12,482 nucleotides of DNA from Candidatus Woesearchaeota archaeon (GTDB lineage: Archaea; Nanobdellota; Nanobdellia; Woesearchaeales; GW2011-AR15), in contig JAVZBY010000008.1 of the NCBI GenBank assembly GCA_038874655.1, positions 31,229-43,710 of the forward strand. The letters run 5' to 3'. The translations under genes were made by a program, and so were the position numbers. How positions within the stretch are numbered: position 1 is the stretch's first letter; each line of letters opens with the position of its first letter. The notes beneath the pieces were generated by a model. That model had not been told where the DNA came from. It searched no databases and saw only the letters and a program-made list of their open reading frames with translations. This document shows positions 615 through 12,347 of the stretch, piece after piece.

Positions 615-2384
615 ATGCTCACTCAAGAAATTTTAGAATCTATTAGATTTTTTGCATTAGAGAATGCATTAAAGTTTAAAGGAAAAGCAAATAATAATGC
701 TGTTTTTGGAAAGGTTTTAGGAAATTTTCCTGAATTAAAAAAAGACATGAATTTTTTAAAGAAAGAGGTAGATGAAATAGTTAGTAATGTAAATTCCCTT
801 TCTTTTGAAGATATTGTAAAAGAATATGAGTCTGTTAAAAGAAAAACACAAAAAGATTTAAAAAATGAAAAAAGTGAAGTTGTAGAAGAGAAATTAAAAA
901 AAGAAGAGCAAAAAAAGAAAAAAGATCTACCTGATTTGCCTAATGCAGTATATGGAAAAGTTATTACAAGAATTCCGCCAGAGCCATCAAAATATAATCA
1001 TATTGGACATGCTCTTTCTTTTTTAATTAATTATTTATATGCTAAGAAATATAATGGCAAATGTTTCATTAGATTTGAGGATACTAATCCAGAAAAAGCA
1101 ACTCAAGAGTTTGTTGATGCAATGATTGAAGATGTTGTTGGTTATTTAGAGATAAAACCTGATAAAATTATGTTTGTTAGCGATGATATGCCTTTGTTCT
1201 ATGATTTTGCTGAAAAATTAATTAAAATGCAAAAAGCATATGTTTGTTGTTGTGAAAGAGAAAAGATGCAAGAATTTAGAGAAAAAGGTATTTCTTGTGA
1301 GTGTTCTAAAAATAATGTTGATAAAAATTTGAATGAATGGCACAAAATGTTGAAAGGTTTTTATAATGAAGGTGAAGCTGTTTTAAGATTAGTTGGAGAT
1401 ATGAAATCTTTAAATCATGTAATGAGAGATCCTGTTATATTTAGAATAAATAAGACAGAACATTACAGACAAAAAAATAAGTATTGTGTTTGGCCTATGT
1501 ATGATTTTGAAAATGCAGTTGAGGATTCAATAACAGGAGTAACCCATATTTTAAGAAGTAATGAGTTTGGTGAGATGAGAATTGAGCTTCAAAATTATAT
1601 TAAAGAACTTTTAGGTTTGCCAAAACAAACAATAATTCAATATGGAAGGTTTAATATTTCAGGAGCAACTACAAAAGGCAGAGAGATTAGAGAAAAAATT
1701 AATTCTGGAGAGGTTTTTGGTTGGGATGATCCTTCATTAGTAACCTTAAAAGCTATGAAAAGAAGGGGTTATGTTAAAGAAACTTTTTATGAGTTGGTTT
1801 ATGAAGTGGGATTATCAGCTAATACAAGCAAAAATATTGACTGGAGTTTAATAGAATCCATTAATAGAGCAATTTTAGATAAAAAAGTAAATAGATATTT
1901 TTTTGTTGAAAATCCAATAAAAATTGGAATTAAAAATAGTCCAATTTTAAAAGTTCAATTAAAAAAACATCCAGAGTTAATGGAAAAAGGATTTAGAATT
2001 TTTGAAACAAAAGGTGTTTTTTATGTTTCTAAAACTGATTATGATAAATTTAATAATGGTGATTTAATTAGGTTAATGGATTGTTTAAATTTTAAAGTTA
2101 TTAATAAAGAGAAAAATGAGTTTTTGTTTGATTCATTGGATTATGAAACTTATAAAAAAACAGGCAAATTAATTATACACTGGCTTCCAGCAGATGAAAT
2201 AAATGAAAAAGAATTAGTTTATACAGAAGTGTTAATGCCTAATCATGAATTAAAAAAAGGTTATGCTGAAAATGAAATAAAAAATTTAGCTAAAGAGGAG
2301 ATTGTACAATTTCAAAGGTTTGGGTTTTGTAAATTAGATGAAGTTAAGGAAGATAAATTTATATTTTGGTTTACTACAAAGTAA
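615..2384 (+). CDS. gltX: Glutamate--tRNA ligase, archaeal type
   Basis: TRIPPEPSKYNHIGH (HIGH motif), RFEDTNP, AYVC, RDPVIFR, VWPMYDF, GVTHILRSNE, GWDDP, and a C-terminal beta-barrel anticodon-binding region (IIHW...QFQRFGF). It also has the archaeal N-terminal ALENALKFKGKA segment. Confidence 0.96.
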   Translation: MLTQEILESIRFFALENALKFKGKANNNAVFGKVLGNFPELKKDMNFLKKEVDEIVSNVNSLSFEDIVKEYESVKRKTQKDLKNEKSEVVEEKLKKEEQKKKKDLPDLPNAVYGKVITRIPPEPSKYNHIGHALSFLINYLYAKKYNGKCFIRFEDTNPEKATQEFVDAMIEDVVGYLEIKPDKIMFVSDDMPLFYDFAEKLIKMQKAYVCCCEREKMQEFREKGISCECSKNNVDKNLNEWHKMLKGFYNEGEAVLRLVGDMKSLNHVMRDPVIFRINKTEHYRQKNKYCVWPMYDFENAVEDSITGVTHILRSNEFGEMRIELQNYIKELLGLPKQTIIQYGRFNISGATTKGREIREKINSGEVFGWDDPSLVTLKAMKRRGYVKETFYELVYEVGLSANTSKNIDWSLIESINRAILDKKVNRYFFVENPIKIGIKNSPILKVQLKKHPELMEKGFRIFETKGVFYVSKTDYDKFNNGDLIRLMDCLNFKVINKEKNEFLFDSLDYETYKKTGKLIIHWLPADEINEKELVYTEVLMPNHELKKGYAENEIKNLAKEEIVQFQRFGFCKLDEVKEDKFIFWFTTK

Positions 2385-7272: not shown

Positions 7273-7386
7273 GCCGGCGTCGCATAATCCGGTATTGCGC
7301 TAGCCTTGAGAGCTGGTCCCGTAAGGGATTCCCGGAAACTTTTACATTTTATGTAAGGTTGGGAAATTCAAATCCGGGCGCCGGCG
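7273..7386 (+). tRNA. tRNA-Ser(UGA) with a 31-nt intron at position 53/54; CCA not encoded
   Basis: Acceptor GCCGGCG/CGCCGGC plus G73, D stem GCA/TGC, anticodon stem CTAGC/GCTGG with loop CT-TGA-GA (anticodon 7307..7309), long variable arm TCCC-GTAA-GGGA, T stem CCCGG/CCGGG. Removing 7336..7366 restores GG-TTCAAAT-CC. Confidence 0.93.
7336..7366 (+). other. Non-canonical tRNA intron (53/54) with relaxed BHB motif
   Basis: Central helix TCCC(7330..7333)/GGGA(7361..7364), 3-nt bulges GG^A and AA^T, and an intron hairpin AACTTTTACAT/ATGTAAGGTT. Confidence 0.85.
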
Positions 7387-7437
7387 CTATTTTTCTATTT
7401 TTTTAATTTTTTTAGTGATTTTTTTTAGAAATAGAAA

Positions 7438-7527
7438 TGGGACCGCCCGGACTTTCGTTTTTTTGATTTCGAACCGGGGTTACTACCACCCCAAGGTAAT
7501 GTGATAGCCAAGCTACACTACGGCCCC
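7438..7527 (-). tRNA. tRNA-Pro(GGG) with a 16-nt intron at position 59/60; CCA not encoded
   Basis: Minus strand reads GGGGCCG TA GTG TAGCTTGGCTAT CAC A TTACC TT-GGG-GT GGTAG TAAC CCCGG TTCGAA[ATCAAAAAAACGAAAG]T CCGGG CGGTCCC A. Confidence 0.93.
7452..7467 (-). other. Non-canonical tRNA intron (59/60) with BHB motif
   Basis: The outer helix is the T stem, the central helix is TTCG/CGAA, and the bulges are AA^A and AG^T. Excision gives the canonical T loop TTCGAAT. Confidence 0.85.
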
Positions 7528-7568: not shown

Positions 7569-10500
7569 TTAATCTTTATGATGTGTTTCAATGTAGATTA
7601 TTATTGATATTAAACCTATAATAAAGATTGTTCCTTCTAAAAAGGTTAGTTTTTTTGGTTCTTTTTCTGTTGGTAGGTTTTTTATTCTTTTAGCAATAGG
7701 CAATAATTTTATTTGTTTTAAACATTCTTCAGATATTTTTTTGTTTGCTTTAAGGTTAAGTTCAAAATCTTTTTCAATGTTTGTTAAGTGCCATGCTATT
7801 ATGGGGTCTTCTTTAATAACTTCATATTCTTTTAATTCAATGTCTAATTCTTTTACATAATTTGCTAGGCATTTTGGTATTTCTAAATAAACTGTTAAGT
7901 TATCAACTTTTTCTTTTGGTTTTATTGTGTTTATTATTTTTGTTTGATTTTCTTCTATGTTGTAGTTTATAGAGCTTTCAATTATCTTTTTTGTGTTTTC
8001 TGCATTTATTAAATCGTTTTTGTTTAATGCTATATCAGTAATAAGTTCGTTTTTTATTGTTATGTTTGTGCAATTATTTTTTTTTATTATGATTTTTTTT
8101 TCTTGGAATATGTTATCACAAATGATTTTTAAGAAATGTTCTCCTGTTGATAGTGTGATTAGTTTTTCAGAGTAAGGATAATTTGTGTTGTCCAATGAAA
8201 TAAGGCAGTTTTCAGGATAATTATAATCAATTTTTATTTTAATTGATTTTGTATTTGAACATGTTTCTAGGTAGTTTTCTGGTTCAAGAATGTTAAAATT
8301 ACTAGGACATAATGCATTACATTGTTGCCATTTGAAGTTTTTACATTCTTGGTAACCATTTACAGAAGGACATTCTGGTTTTATGCAAGATCTTTTTTGA
8401 TTTTCATCTCTACAGCATTCTGCTAATTCATCTATTTGATTATTACAATTGTTATCTAGACCATCACATATTTCTTCTTGAGGATATATAGAGTTTTCAC
8501 ATTGACCCCATTGTCCATTAATGCATGTTTGTATTCCATATTTACAGATTCCTATGTCATTAAATCCACAAATTTTAGTTGAGCCAGTTTGACATGGACA
8601 GTTTTCATCAATATTGCCATCGCAATTATTATCTAATCCATCACATATTTCTTCAGTTGGTTTTAGATTTTTATCTGATTCAATATAGTTTCCATTTACA
8701 CAAATTAAAGTGTTGTTAGAACATATTCCTTTTTCGTTTTTTGAAATGATTAAATTTTCATCAATTAAACCATCGCAATCATTATCTATGTTATCGCATT
8801 TTGTTTCATTTTGCTCATAATCTGGGCATACTAAATTTCCATTTATACATTGAGCATTTTGATTGCACGCACTTTTTATGTTGTTGGATAAAGAGATTAT
8901 TGAGTTAATTTGCAGTATTTCTGAACATTTTTTTGTTTCTTTTATGTTGTTATCAATGAAACCATCGCAATCATTATCTTTGCCATCACAAATTTCGTCT
9001 TTTGGAATAGGACAGCCTTGCCAAATTCCATTTACACATGTTGCTTTTCCAATTGAACATTCTCCTAATAAAAATAATTCATTGCAATTTTTTGTTTGAT
9101 CATTAATGCAATTGCAGTTTTCATCTATTAAGTTATTGCAGTTGTTATCTTTTCCATCACATATTTCAGTTTCAATTTTACATTCGCAGCCATTATTTAT
9201 ATTTAAGTCTAAATCAGCATAACCTTCTATACATTTATTCTGGCAAACTAATCTGTTATTTTCAATAAAAGATAAACAATCTTCATCATTGCAATCTGTT
9301 TTTGAATCGCAATCATCATCTTTGTTGTTGTTGCATATTTCATTTTTTGGCAAAGGACAACCTATCCATTGGTTGTTTTGACATGTTGCATTTCCAATTG
9401 AACATTCTCCAAAAAACAAATCAGAACATTTTTTTTTAAATCCAGAAACACAATTACAACCCTCATCAATCTGAGAATTGCAATTATTATCAATTCCATC
9501 ACATGATTCTATTGCTGTTGGATAAACATATGGATTATTGTCGTTGCAATCTCCTTCAATATCAAACCATTTATCATTGTCATTATCATTTCCAATATTA
9601 AAAGTAGTGCTTACTGTTGTAGTTATTCCTTTATTATCGCAAATAGATGTTTGCCCTGTTGATGTTTCTGTTAATTCTGCAATAAATCTTCCAGGTTTTG
9701 CAGAATCCCATTGAACAGTAAAGGGTATAGGTGTATTATATTGATAGTTTTTGGGCAAAGTTCCAGTTTTTGTTGCAATAACTTGATTATTAGATTGATT
9801 AATTATTCTTAAAGTATAACTAGTATCGAAAAATGTTTCACTAACTAAATTTCCTTTTGTATCACAATTAGTTCCAGTAGTGCTCCAATCTTGATAAGAA
9901 TTTAACTTTTTTCCTGAAAACACTACAGGCTGATTTAAAACAAAATTAGTTGTATCTAATTTAAAATTTTCAACATTTGCAATACAGCCGTCAAATGACT
10001 CTGCTATATACACATTAAAAGTTTTAGAAACAGGAATCATTGTGCTTTGATCACATTTAGGATCTGGAACACTAGAGGTCATTGTTATTATATAATTACC
10101 TGGTTCTGTGTTCTTTGTTGTTTGCCATGTGAATCTAAAAGGATATGATGTTCCAGAATAAATGCCAAACTCTTTTTGCTGTGGAAAACCTAAAACTGAT
10201 GCACTTGAACCTTGTTTCTTTATATCAACAACCATTCTAGTAGTAACATTACGCCAAGGTTTTAATTCTTCTGGAAAATAAATATTTGCAGGATTTGGTG
10301 TAAAAGCACTTGCAGTCTCAGCATCTAAATTTGTGTCTGTTAAAATGGTTAATGGTAATCCTTGCTCTGCGCAACTACTTATGCTCGGTGTAAAATCGGA
10401 TTTGCAGTTGTCTTGCTTATCAAAAATTACTTTTTCTGATGGATATGTGTAAGTTGAATAATAACATGAATAAGTATAAGGTCTTCTAAAACGAAATCTA

Positions 10501-10805
10501 TAATTATTAACAGCATAATAACTAATATATCCATAACTAGTTTCCATACAATCTGGATAGATTAAAGTTAAAGAATTGGAGGATGTTGTTATAGGATTGG
10601 GAACAAACAAATTAGAAATAGGATTTAATTTTACACTTGTACATTCTTGATTTGAACAACTATACCATATAGCCCAAACACTATTTATTTGCTTGTTATC
10701 TTCTGTCTCAAAAGTTAAAGGATAAATTAGTTTTGAATGAACAAAAACTAAATTCAATATTAAAATAACAATAAATAAGATTAGTTTTAATTTTTTAAAA
10801 AACAT
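7569..10805 (-). CDS. Large secreted, C-terminally membrane-anchored Cys/Asp-rich surface protein with MopE-related putative metal-binding repeats
   Basis: N-terminal signal peptide, beta-rich Thr/Ser N-terminal half, seven E-x-C-D-G-x-D-N-x-C-x-x-x-I-D-E-type motifs, and a C-terminal TM helix (GTIFIIGLISIIIYI). Confidence 0.85.
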   Translation of the reverse strand: MFFKKLKLILFIVILILNLVFVHSKLIYPLTFETEDNKQINSVWAIWYSCSNQECTSVKLNPISNLFVPNPITTSSNSLTLIYPDCMETSYGYISYYAVNNYRFRFRRPYTYSCYYSTYTYPSEKVIFDKQDNCKSDFTPSISSCAEQGLPLTILTDTNLDAETASAFTPNPANIYFPEELKPWRNVTTRMVVDIKKQGSSASVLGFPQQKEFGIYSGTSYPFRFTWQTTKNTEPGNYIITMTSSVPDPKCDQSTMIPVSKTFNVYIAESFDGCIANVENFKLDTTNFVLNQPVVFSGKKLNSYQDWSTTGTNCDTKGNLVSETFFDTSYTLRIINQSNNQVIATKTGTLPKNYQYNTPIPFTVQWDSAKPGRFIAELTETSTGQTSICDNKGITTTVSTTFNIGNDNDNDKWFDIEGDCNDNNPYVYPTAIESCDGIDNNCNSQIDEGCNCVSGFKKKCSDLFFGECSIGNATCQNNQWIGCPLPKNEICNNNKDDDCDSKTDCNDEDCLSFIENNRLVCQNKCIEGYADLDLNINNGCECKIETEICDGKDNNCNNLIDENCNCINDQTKNCNELFLLGECSIGKATCVNGIWQGCPIPKDEICDGKDNDCDGFIDNNIKETKKCSEILQINSIISLSNNIKSACNQNAQCINGNLVCPDYEQNETKCDNIDNDCDGLIDENLIISKNEKGICSNNTLICVNGNYIESDKNLKPTEEICDGLDNNCDGNIDENCPCQTGSTKICGFNDIGICKYGIQTCINGQWGQCENSIYPQEEICDGLDNNCNNQIDELAECCRDENQKRSCIKPECPSVNGYQECKNFKWQQCNALCPSNFNILEPENYLETCSNTKSIKIKIDYNYPENCLISLDNTNYPYSEKLITLSTGEHFLKIICDNIFQEKKIIIKKNNCTNITIKNELITDIALNKNDLINAENTKKIIESSINYNIEENQTKIINTIKPKEKVDNLTVYLEIPKCLANYVKELDIELKEYEVIKEDPIIAWHLTNIEKDFELNLKANKKISEECLKQIKLLPIAKRIKNLPTEKEPKKLTFLEGTIFIIGLISIIIYIETHHKD
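8427..9587 (-). repeat. Intragenic array of Cys/Asp-rich motifs (Cu-binding_MopE-like)
   Basis: ESCDGIDNNCNSQIDE, EICNNNKDDDCD, EICDGKDNNCNNLIDE, EICDGKDNDCDGFID, TKCDNIDNDCDGLIDE, EICDGLDNNCDGNIDE and EICDGLDNNCNNQIDE. A DNA repeat is 29/30 identical between 9036..9065 and 9381..9410. Confidence 0.85.
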
Positions 10806-11707: not shown

Positions 11708-11944
11708 ATGAAAGAAATGATATCTCTAACATTAGAAGAAAATTTTTTAAAAGAAATAGATGAGATAGTAAAGACTTATAATTTTAGTAGTAGAACAGAA
11801 TTGATTAGAGCAGCATTAAGAGAAAAAATAGAGGAGTTAAAATTAAAAAATTCTATTATAGCTATATCTAAGTTAAAGGGTATTTCGAAAAAAAAAACGA
11901 CAGAAGAAGATTTAGAAAAAATTAGAGAACTTATTTTTAAATAA
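11708..11944 (+). CDS. CopG/ribbon-helix-helix DNA-binding protein, putative VapB-type antitoxin
   Basis: MISLTLEENFLKEIDEIVKTYNFSSRTELIRAALRE is a typical RHH (NikR-N/CopG) pattern. The protein is 78 aa and adjacent to a PIN gene. Confidence 0.85.
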   Translation: MKEMISLTLEENFLKEIDEIVKTYNFSSRTELIRAALREKIEELKLKNSIIAISKLKGISKKKTTEEDLEKIRELIFK

Positions 11945-12347
11945 TTTCTTCTGGTTTATATGATTTAACTATGTCTTTTAATTCTTTAAAATGTTTATCT
12001 CTTGTAATTAAAATTAAGTTATTATCTCTTGCAACTATAGCATGTAGAGCATCGCCTTTTGGAATATTTCTTTGTTCAGCAATAATTTTAGCTTCATCTT
12101 TTTGTTTATCATTAACATAAACAATTTCTAAAAATTCTTTAAATGGAAATAGCATACCTCTTATTTCTTCTAAGCCATAATTAACCTGCAATTCTTTTTG
12201 TATAAAATCAGTTATAACTATTTTATTTTTTTCTAATATAATTTTTTTAAATAATTCAAATGCATAATCTCCTAAAGGTTCATTTTTATAACCTTTTCTA
12301 TTTTCATATAAATCTATCCAAATAGAGGTATCAATTAGATAATTCAT
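11937..12347 (-). CDS. vapC: PIN-domain ribonuclease, VapC-type toxin
   Basis: YLIDTSIWID, KEL, GDALHAIVA and LITRDKHF contain the conserved acidic PIN active-site residues. Confidence 0.9.
   Translation of the reverse strand: MNYLIDTSIWIDLYENRKGYKNEPLGDYAFELFKKIILEKNKIVITDFIQKELQVNYGLEEIRGMLFPFKEFLEIVYVNDKQKDEAKIIAEQRNIPKGDALHAIVARDNNLILITRDKHFKELKDIVKSYKPEEII

Follow-up and report, generated by a model that had tools for sequence, protein, structure and literature searches.

The closest described counterpart of the locus reported here is the pre-tRNA-Pro(GGG) of ARMAN-2, which carries introns at positions 53/54 and 59/60 according to the legend of Figure 1 in PMC3239211. Non-canonical as well as transposed tRNA introns are known from the Thermoproteales (Sugahara 2008 and Fujishima 2010, in the summary given by PMC4033280). 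As to the splicing endonuclease (EndA), the relevant parts of PMC3239211 and PMC5829648 hold that a single alpha-type enzyme without an extra loop needs strict BHB motifs. Kaneta et al. 2018 associate the alpha4-type EndAs of DPANN archaea with many disrupted tRNA genes and, in the part of PMC5829648 that treats them, tie this to an 'L3' loop. The 53/54 site is therefore not new, and introns of this kind are already known from related archaea; among the full texts that we searched, none dealt with 53/54 introns in Woesearchaeota.

The window, that is, the whole stretch of 12,482 nucleotides that was analysed, comes from a Woesearchaeota genome of 1.26 Mb on 17 contigs that is 97% complete and has a GC content of 25%. 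The tRNA-Ser(UGA) gene at positions 7273-7386 of the window (forward strand) is interrupted by an intron and very probably functional; it belongs to a Woesearchaeota-type DPANN archaeon, and its transcript would be spliced by EndA and RtcB through a relaxed HBh' motif. The gene is flanked by an AI-2E-family transporter and by a large MopE-repeat protein (1078 aa with MopE metal-binding repeats, 7569-10805, reverse strand); a homing endonuclease was sought beside it, and the window encodes none. Farther away the window encodes a class I aminoacyl-tRNA synthetase of the Glu/Gln type (615-2384, forward strand) and a PIN-domain protein (11937-12347, reverse strand).

Unspliced, the gene is 114 nt long including the discriminator G7386, an extent read from the sequence and supported by ARAGORN after intron removal and by RF00005; CCA is not encoded. 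Exon 1 (7273-7335, forward strand) represents tRNA positions 1-53 and holds the 5' strand of the acceptor stem, the D, anticodon and variable arms, and the 5' strand of the T stem, CCCGG. The 31-nt intron (7336-7366, forward strand) lies between G53 and U54 and is the sole deletion that yields a tRNA-Ser(tga). Exon 2 (7367-7386, forward strand) supplies the T loop TTCAAAT, the 3' strand of the T stem, CCGGG, the 3' strand of the acceptor stem and the discriminator G73. The acceptor stem has 7 bp, the anticodon loop reads CTTGAGA with the anticodon TGA, and the variable arm is a short 3-bp/4-nt element. With the intron taken out by script, ARAGORN calls a tRNA-Ser(tga) of 84 nt and 64% GC that shows the class II features of tRNA-Ser: a long variable arm, UGA, G73 and a 7-nt T loop. 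G73 and the variable arm are identity elements of tRNA-Ser. The coordinates, the insert length of 31 nt and the 53/54 site proposed in the preliminary description are thus correct, as judged from the sequence and from the exact tRNA left after removal. Oligo-T runs on the same strand 3' of the gene (7390-7413) are, from their sequence, a likely archaeal terminator.

The preliminary description had also expected standard finders to miss the gene, and they do: ARAGORN makes no call on the unspliced gene in either default or intron mode, and Rfam cmscan with gathering filters returns zero matches over the whole window. With laxer filters RF00005 scores 30.5 bits (cut-off 29) over exactly 7273-7386, aligning the intron together with the T loop as a single T loop of 38 nt. 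A group I or group II self-splicing intron was considered and rejected, the insert being just 31 nt long and the sole Rfam match at E<=1 being tRNA. The intron is present in a single copy, and no further copy with up to 6 substitutions was found in the genome.

The need for this gene was judged from the tRNA complement and from codon usage. The genome has four tRNA-Ser genes, with the anticodons GGA, GCU, CGA and UGA, the last being the gene at 7273-7386. An intact second tRNA-Ser(UGA) elsewhere had been named beforehand as a sign that the locus is a pseudogene. It was sought in the 97%-complete genome in four ways, with ARAGORN (with and without intron mode), by DNA similarity, by a genome-wide BHB-removal scan and by a search for the UGA anticodon arm, and none was found. 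The anticodon-arm scan also returned a GC-rich, apparently structured stretch that is not a tRNA (contig C10, ~21740-21900, forward strand). UCA accounts for 19.6 of every 1000 codons and shares with UCU the first place among serine codons. Because the gene is the sole copy found and UCA is a top serine codon, its transcript would have to be spliced. On these sequence grounds the gene is probably real and essential; there is a slight chance that a second copy lies in a gap of the assembly.

The splice motif was identified by motif scoring, by pair probabilities and by covariation. Its central helix H is formed by the exon strand TCCC (7330-7333, tRNA nt 48-51) and the intron strand GGGA (7361-7364), a pairing proposed beforehand; it holds at 4/4 positions, with probabilities of 0.81-0.85. 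The 5' splice site is the bulge GG|A (7334-7336), cut after G7335 under the BHB rule, and the 3' splice site is the triplet AA|T (7365-7367), cut after A7366. The earlier claim holds true that the exact T arm results when each triplet is cut behind its second base (ARAGORN Ser(tga)). Between the sites the intron forms an inner helix h' (7337-7360) of ten pairs, all standard, in which 7337-7342 pair with 7355-7360 and 7344-7347 with 7351-7354, with T7343 bulged and a 3-nt loop at 7348-7350. The 5' triplet is thus closed by the intron hairpin h'. The 3' triplet is followed by T-loop sequence, and the outer helix h beside it scores 0/3 pairs, which agrees with the weak outer helix and relaxed BHB described before and falls short of a strict hBHBh' motif. 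By its pairing pattern the motif is of the relaxed HBh' type, in a nomenclature that follows the relevant portions of PMC5829648 and PMC3239211. BHB-like motifs alone are cheap: a loose BHB filter lets through 1,361,902 of the ~354 million combinations of position and length in the genome. As this amounts to just 0.4% of the pairs, chance does not account for a BHB motif at the one deletion by which a tRNA is restored; it is this coincidence, not the motif by itself, that is costly.

H takes up nt 48-51, while the T stem needs 49-53 paired with 61-65, and H therefore excludes the T stem. By this geometry the splice motif is incompatible with the cloverleaf, as the first description of the locus had stated. 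The ensemble that ViennaRNA computes for the 114-nt precursor gives the H pairs probabilities of 0.81-0.85 at 37 C and the T-stem pairs at most 0.05, and its preference for H holds at 55 and 70 C as well. Compared as explicit conformers at 37 C, the two folds, T stem plus hairpin and H plus hairpin, are nearly isoenergetic (-38.7 vs -38.3 kcal/mol, a gap of 0.4), and warmer temperatures favour the BHB conformer. In the MFE structure of the precursor the GG of the bulge is additionally paired with UU. Formation of the T stem probably has to await ligation. That description had also noted that the variable arm repeats the TCCC/GGGA words and had suggested that alternative pairings compete with the motif. 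The words are indeed present, and the competition is rejected: the predicted probability of their pairing with the intron is ~0, and relatives that bear the same intron have other variable-arm sequences in which these words are not conserved.

From these elements we infer the following order of folding, cleavage and ligation. Before splicing, the acceptor, D, anticodon and variable arms of the transcript would already take the fold of the mature tRNA, with the T stem unformed. The 4-bp helix H of the relaxed HBh' motif would arise between nt 48-51 (UCCC) and GGGA, the final four paired bases of the intron. What is left of the intron would fold into h', a hairpin of 10 bp by which the 5' bulge GG|A of 3 nt is closed, and the 3' site AA|U would adjoin H with no helix closing it. 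The sole EndA of the genome would then cut each triplet behind its second nucleotide, and the exons would be joined by RtcB. Only after this joining could the T stem, CCCGG (49-53) with CCGGG (61-65), and the T loop of 7 nt take shape.

Comparison with relatives supports the junction. Many tRNA-Ser genes among 60 relatives continue without a break from query position 63 to 95, exactly where the junction is predicted, and the tRNA-Ser(GGA) of the same genome has an identical T arm and acceptor, uninterrupted. Homologous 53/54 introns are found in Ser(GGA) and Ser(UGA) of G005, a genome of the same family, and in Ser(UGA) of G020, which belongs to another family; they have the same ends as the intron described here and interiors of 86-92 nt. 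The shared ends recur in Ser(UGA), Ser(GGA), Ser(CGA) and Pro(UGG). The long Ser introns (L034, identical to L030, from G020; L037 and L046 from G005) have in common an interior made up of GGCGAC, a variable hairpin and GTCCCC. Six related intron-bearing loci searched against Rfam gave nothing at E<=0.1, tRNA included. Contigs of a related strain from another study's sequencing run keep the Ser intron, with differences inside the hairpin, and an intron-less joint across the intron was found in none of four DNA sequencing runs.

An exact 19-mer covering the 3' end of the intron and exon 2 occurs at 18 loci when one genome per prokaryote species is searched. Twelve of these loci are in a tRNA context, all in archaeal MAGs, and the other six comprise five bacterial loci and one coding-like stretch. 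Several of the public MAGs that carry a Woesearchaeota-type tRNA with the intron (L034, L035, L037, L040, L041, L044 and L046) are titled 'uncultured Methanosarcinales archaeon', a label that looks doubtful. With up to 2 mismatches the 19-mer pattern gives 34 matches in 29 of the 401 genomes of the order, as against 5 for a reversed control. Twelve of the 29 loci that were examined, with restoration of the T stem as the sole requirement and no BHB filter, yield a tRNA whose junction lies at 53/54; the locus of G261, an unpublished genome, is not included. The Val genes of G001 and G017 were added through a search with the genome's own tRNA-Val(CAC), and the Ile gene of G015 through a BHB scan over the loci of the Ser search. 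Scans that combine BHB and ARAGORN make numerous false calls at the termini of tRNAs without introns, and for this reason only calls with a T-loop junction and a restored T stem were used. The 26 introns collected include 2 duplicates, leaving 24 distinct 53/54 introns of 17-92 nt in tRNAs for Ser, Pro, Val, Ile, Tyr and Arg.

In these 24 introns H has a standard pair in 96/96 cells, through six exon/intron combinations: TCCC/GGGA, TCCT/GGGA, CCCC/GGGG, CTCC/GGAG, CGTG/CACG and TCTG/CAGA. The first four pairs of h' are standard in 94/96 cells and are formed by many different sequences. Of the positions that could build an outer helix, 47:55 makes a standard pair in 13 of the 24 introns, 46:56 in 8 and 45:57 in 2, and no conserved outer pairing is seen among them. 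The 5' triplet is RG|W throughout and the 3' triplet NA|U, with AA|U in 22. These counts are to be read with their ascertainment: most Ser and Pro examples were found by a pattern that fixes the 3' end of the intron and the Val and Ile examples by a filter that requires H to pair, so that what was free to vary is the exon side, together with the examples found without the BHB filter.

The position of the intron differs among close relatives. In the same-genus genome G002 the syntenic tRNA-Ser(UGA) has an intact T arm and instead carries a 14-nt intron at 37/38. The AI-2E transporter ortholog, with 51% identity in the last 68 residues, immediately precedes this gene, and the Ser(CGA) and Met genes follow it (L084, G002:C40:3700-5100); a duplicated tRNA 3'-end fragment is seen at about 1080-1095 of L084. 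Another member of the genus, G003, has a tRNA-Ser(UGA) without an intron. In G005 an identical 92-nt intron with an identical 3' exon is present in Ser(GGA) and Ser(UGA) on two contigs (L037 and L046), the latter tRNA carrying a 37/38 intron besides. From the sequences, this identity points to a recent gene conversion or intron transfer. The overall pattern fits, on the same kind of evidence, a turnover in which introns are gained, lost and passed between tRNAs with a common T arm, a process that PMC4033280 describes for Thermoproteales.

Other tRNA genes of the genome are interrupted as well. Convergent with the Ser gene is an intron-containing tRNA-Pro(GGG) (7438-7527, reverse strand), called by ARAGORN as tRNA-Pro(ggg) after removal of a 16-nt intron at 59/60 (exon 1, 7527-7468; intron, 7467-7452; exon 2, 7451-7438). 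Its motif is of the hBH/BHL type, with an H of TTCG/CGAA, the T stem in the role of the outer helix and no inner helix. Before removal the gene is missed by ARAGORN and is not reported by RF00005 at E<=0.001. Elsewhere in the genome a tRNA-Val(CAC) has an 81-nt 53/54 intron with an H of CCCC/GGGG (C3:135504-135657, which is L052:65-218, reverse strand); the intron is kept, at 89% identity, in the same-genus G001. A tRNA-Glu(UUC) with a 59/60 intron (C8:503-~620, L053, forward strand) has an intron 3' end, CGAAAG|T, that resembles that of Pro(GGG), and a tRNA-Lys(CUU) carries a D-loop intron of ~20 nt (C7:23237-23334, reverse strand). Many tRNA genes have 37/38 introns, and default ARAGORN, with no handling of introns, finds only 17 tRNAs in the genome. 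The 37/38 introns of tRNA-Met (C8:9183-9306), Trp (C5:57040-57173), Leu(UAG) (C2:224846-224989) and Cys (C9:26740-26864) contain words like GTGATGAGC and like CTGA. Judging by these words, they may be intron-borne box C/D guide RNAs. In Euryarchaeota the intron of tRNA-Trp bears a box C/D guide RNA.

The enzymatic equipment for splicing is present. The genome contains an RtcB gene and a single EndA gene (L031:1474-2103, reverse strand) that encodes 209 aa with the domains PF02778 and PF01974, next to FEN1-like and RNase Z-like ORFs named from their translations alone. A second EndA-like frame was found neither by Pfam at E<=1, nor by phmmer --max, nor with a profile of 120 homologs, in which the next best match has an E of 0.12. 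A weak second PF01974 match (C1:181839-181946, 13.7 bits) was rejected, as it has stops and runs antisense inside a 504-aa ORF. Among 40 relatives PF01974 matches exactly once in 37 and twice in one, with no match in two incomplete genomes. This gene content, one EndA with an N domain (PF02778) and a C domain (PF01974) and no gene for a second subunit, is that of the alpha4 type, whose polypeptide measures about 180-210 aa. No separate beta subunit gene as in (alpha-beta)2 enzymes was found in the genome, and the protein, at 209 aa with one N and one C domain, is not a three-unit epsilon2 enzyme of ~390 aa. The view that such an intron needs an (alpha-beta)2 or epsilon2 endonuclease, put forward when the locus was first described, therefore finds no match in the gene content.

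The sequence of the enzyme was also examined for the known specificity loops. The catalytic Tyr and His are separated by 9 residues in 120/120 EndA homologs, the same spacing as in M. jannaschii, and the insertion of the basic-loop type (N. equitans/ARMAN-2) between them is absent. On the question of a crenarchaeal (CSL) or ARMAN (ASL) loop, which would be an insertion with a conserved Lys in the N-terminal domain, the PF02778 match, at the level of sequence only, covers residues 45-105 and profile positions 7-67 and shows no net insertion. The M. jannaschii alpha4 enzyme aligns collinearly with residues 69-209, and the best match among solved structures is 3IEY_A (E 3.7e-42, residues 67-209). 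Residues 1-40 form a Lys/Glu-rich N-terminal tail that is absent from M. jannaschii EndA; homologs range from 176 to 262 aa and the tail varies.

Could the 31-nt insert instead have killed the gene, with another tRNA reading UCA? The silence of ARAGORN and of the default Rfam filters, and the occurrence of tRNA-Ser(UGA) without this insert in the same-genus G002 and G003, would agree with a pseudogene. The exons are nevertheless intact and restore a perfect cloverleaf, the motif of the insert covaries with the exon in 24 introns, and the same intron is kept in other families. Since no second Ser(UGA) was found and UCA is frequent, a pseudogene is very unlikely. Less probable still, to the point of being scarcely credible, is a tRNA that functions unspliced, its T stem formed and the insert retained as a 38-nt T loop. 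RF00005 aligns the gene in just this way, and at 37 C the T-stem and BHB conformers have much the same stability; against it, the T-stem pairs have an ensemble probability of at most 0.05 and the conserved T-loop residues would be displaced. Retention of the insert also leaves unexplained why the 3' tetranucleotide of the intron tracks exon nt 48-51 through six variants and why a cut by the BHB rule regenerates exactly TTCAAAT.

The remaining alternative accepts splicing and questions how the site is recognized: an undetected partner or beta subunit, or an unseen pairing that supplies the outer helix, would take the place of the HBh' model. Two facts speak for it, the strictness reported for single-subunit EndAs without specificity loops in the pertinent parts of PMC3239211 and PMC5829648, and the identity of the closest solved relative, 3IEY_A, as the catalytic subunit of the heterotetrameric N. 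equitans enzyme. A hidden subunit is opposed by the searches for a second EndA-like frame and by the exactly one PF01974 match in 37/40 relatives, and a hidden outer helix by the 24 introns with no conserved outer pairing. We give this alternative a slim chance, small but above that of a pseudogene. Splicing of a functional tRNA-Ser(UGA) by EndA and RtcB through the HBh' motif thus remains the preferred reading.

The introns may also have a wider significance. We lean towards the view that the loop-less EndA of Woesearchaeales accurately cuts both HBh' and hBH motifs, that the 'specificity loop' rule is incomplete, and that the 53/54 introns are a mobile family. If so, a single-subunit EndA collinear with that of M. 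jannaschii would cut motifs that lack an outer or an inner helix, and the introns would be able to enter any T arm with nt 48-51 matching the 3' tetranucleotide of the intron; such mobility would account for their spread over six tRNA identities and for their turnover between congeners. The 24 covarying introns amount to a natural mutagenesis series for what an endonuclease needs at this site, and with relaxed motifs alongside one alpha-type, apparently loop-less EndA the published specificity rule becomes directly testable. The genome further illustrates how a DPANN genome of 25% GC hides essential tRNAs from standard finders: both tRNAs of the window go unreported by ARAGORN, and RF00005 reports the tRNA-Ser alone. 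Because finders miss such tRNAs, judgements on annotation, codon capacity and completeness go wrong unless introns at any position are modelled.

Among the known systems, ARMAN-2 is the nearest. As set out in the parts of PMC3239211 that concern it, it too is a DPANN archaeon with introns at the same two T-arm sites, 53/54 (here in Ser) and 59/60 (here in Pro(GGG)), and there too enzymatic splicing of the BHB type was inferred from the motif. It differs in that, by the same account, its motif is labelled strict hBHBh', whereas the 53/54 motif here is HBh' with no outer helix, and in that both introns reside in one gene, whereas here the two sites are in two adjacent genes. The ARMAN-2 enzyme is a three-unit epsilon2 EndA with a Tyr-His spacing of 14 (from the residue numbers in PMC3488258), as compared with one 209-aa alpha-type EndA and a spacing of 9.

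The Thermoproteales resemble this archaeon in having introns outside 37/38 and, in the summary of PMC4033280, similar intron sequences across tRNA species; they belong to a different phylum, and the EndA described here is not an (alpha-beta)2 enzyme with the crenarchaeal loop. The organism of PMC5829648, so far as the relevant sections describe it, offers a parallel in that a relaxed HBh' motif is processed where EndA has no known specificity loops, although its intron is in the D arm and its EndA has two subunits, as against the T arm and a single EndA gene here. The same source, in the part that deals with DPANN enzymes, ties their alpha4 type to the 'L3' loop, while the enzyme here has a Tyr-His spacing of 9 and no insertion at the position of the N. 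equitans loop. Finally, N. equitans NEQ205 (3IEY chain A) has a Tyr-His spacing of 15, 6 more than here, has no N-terminal domain, needs the subunit NEQ261 and bears a basic insert beside the catalytic His. In the Woesearchaeota EndA, by comparison, no partner was detected in the genome, the basic insert is absent and the N domain PF02778 is present.
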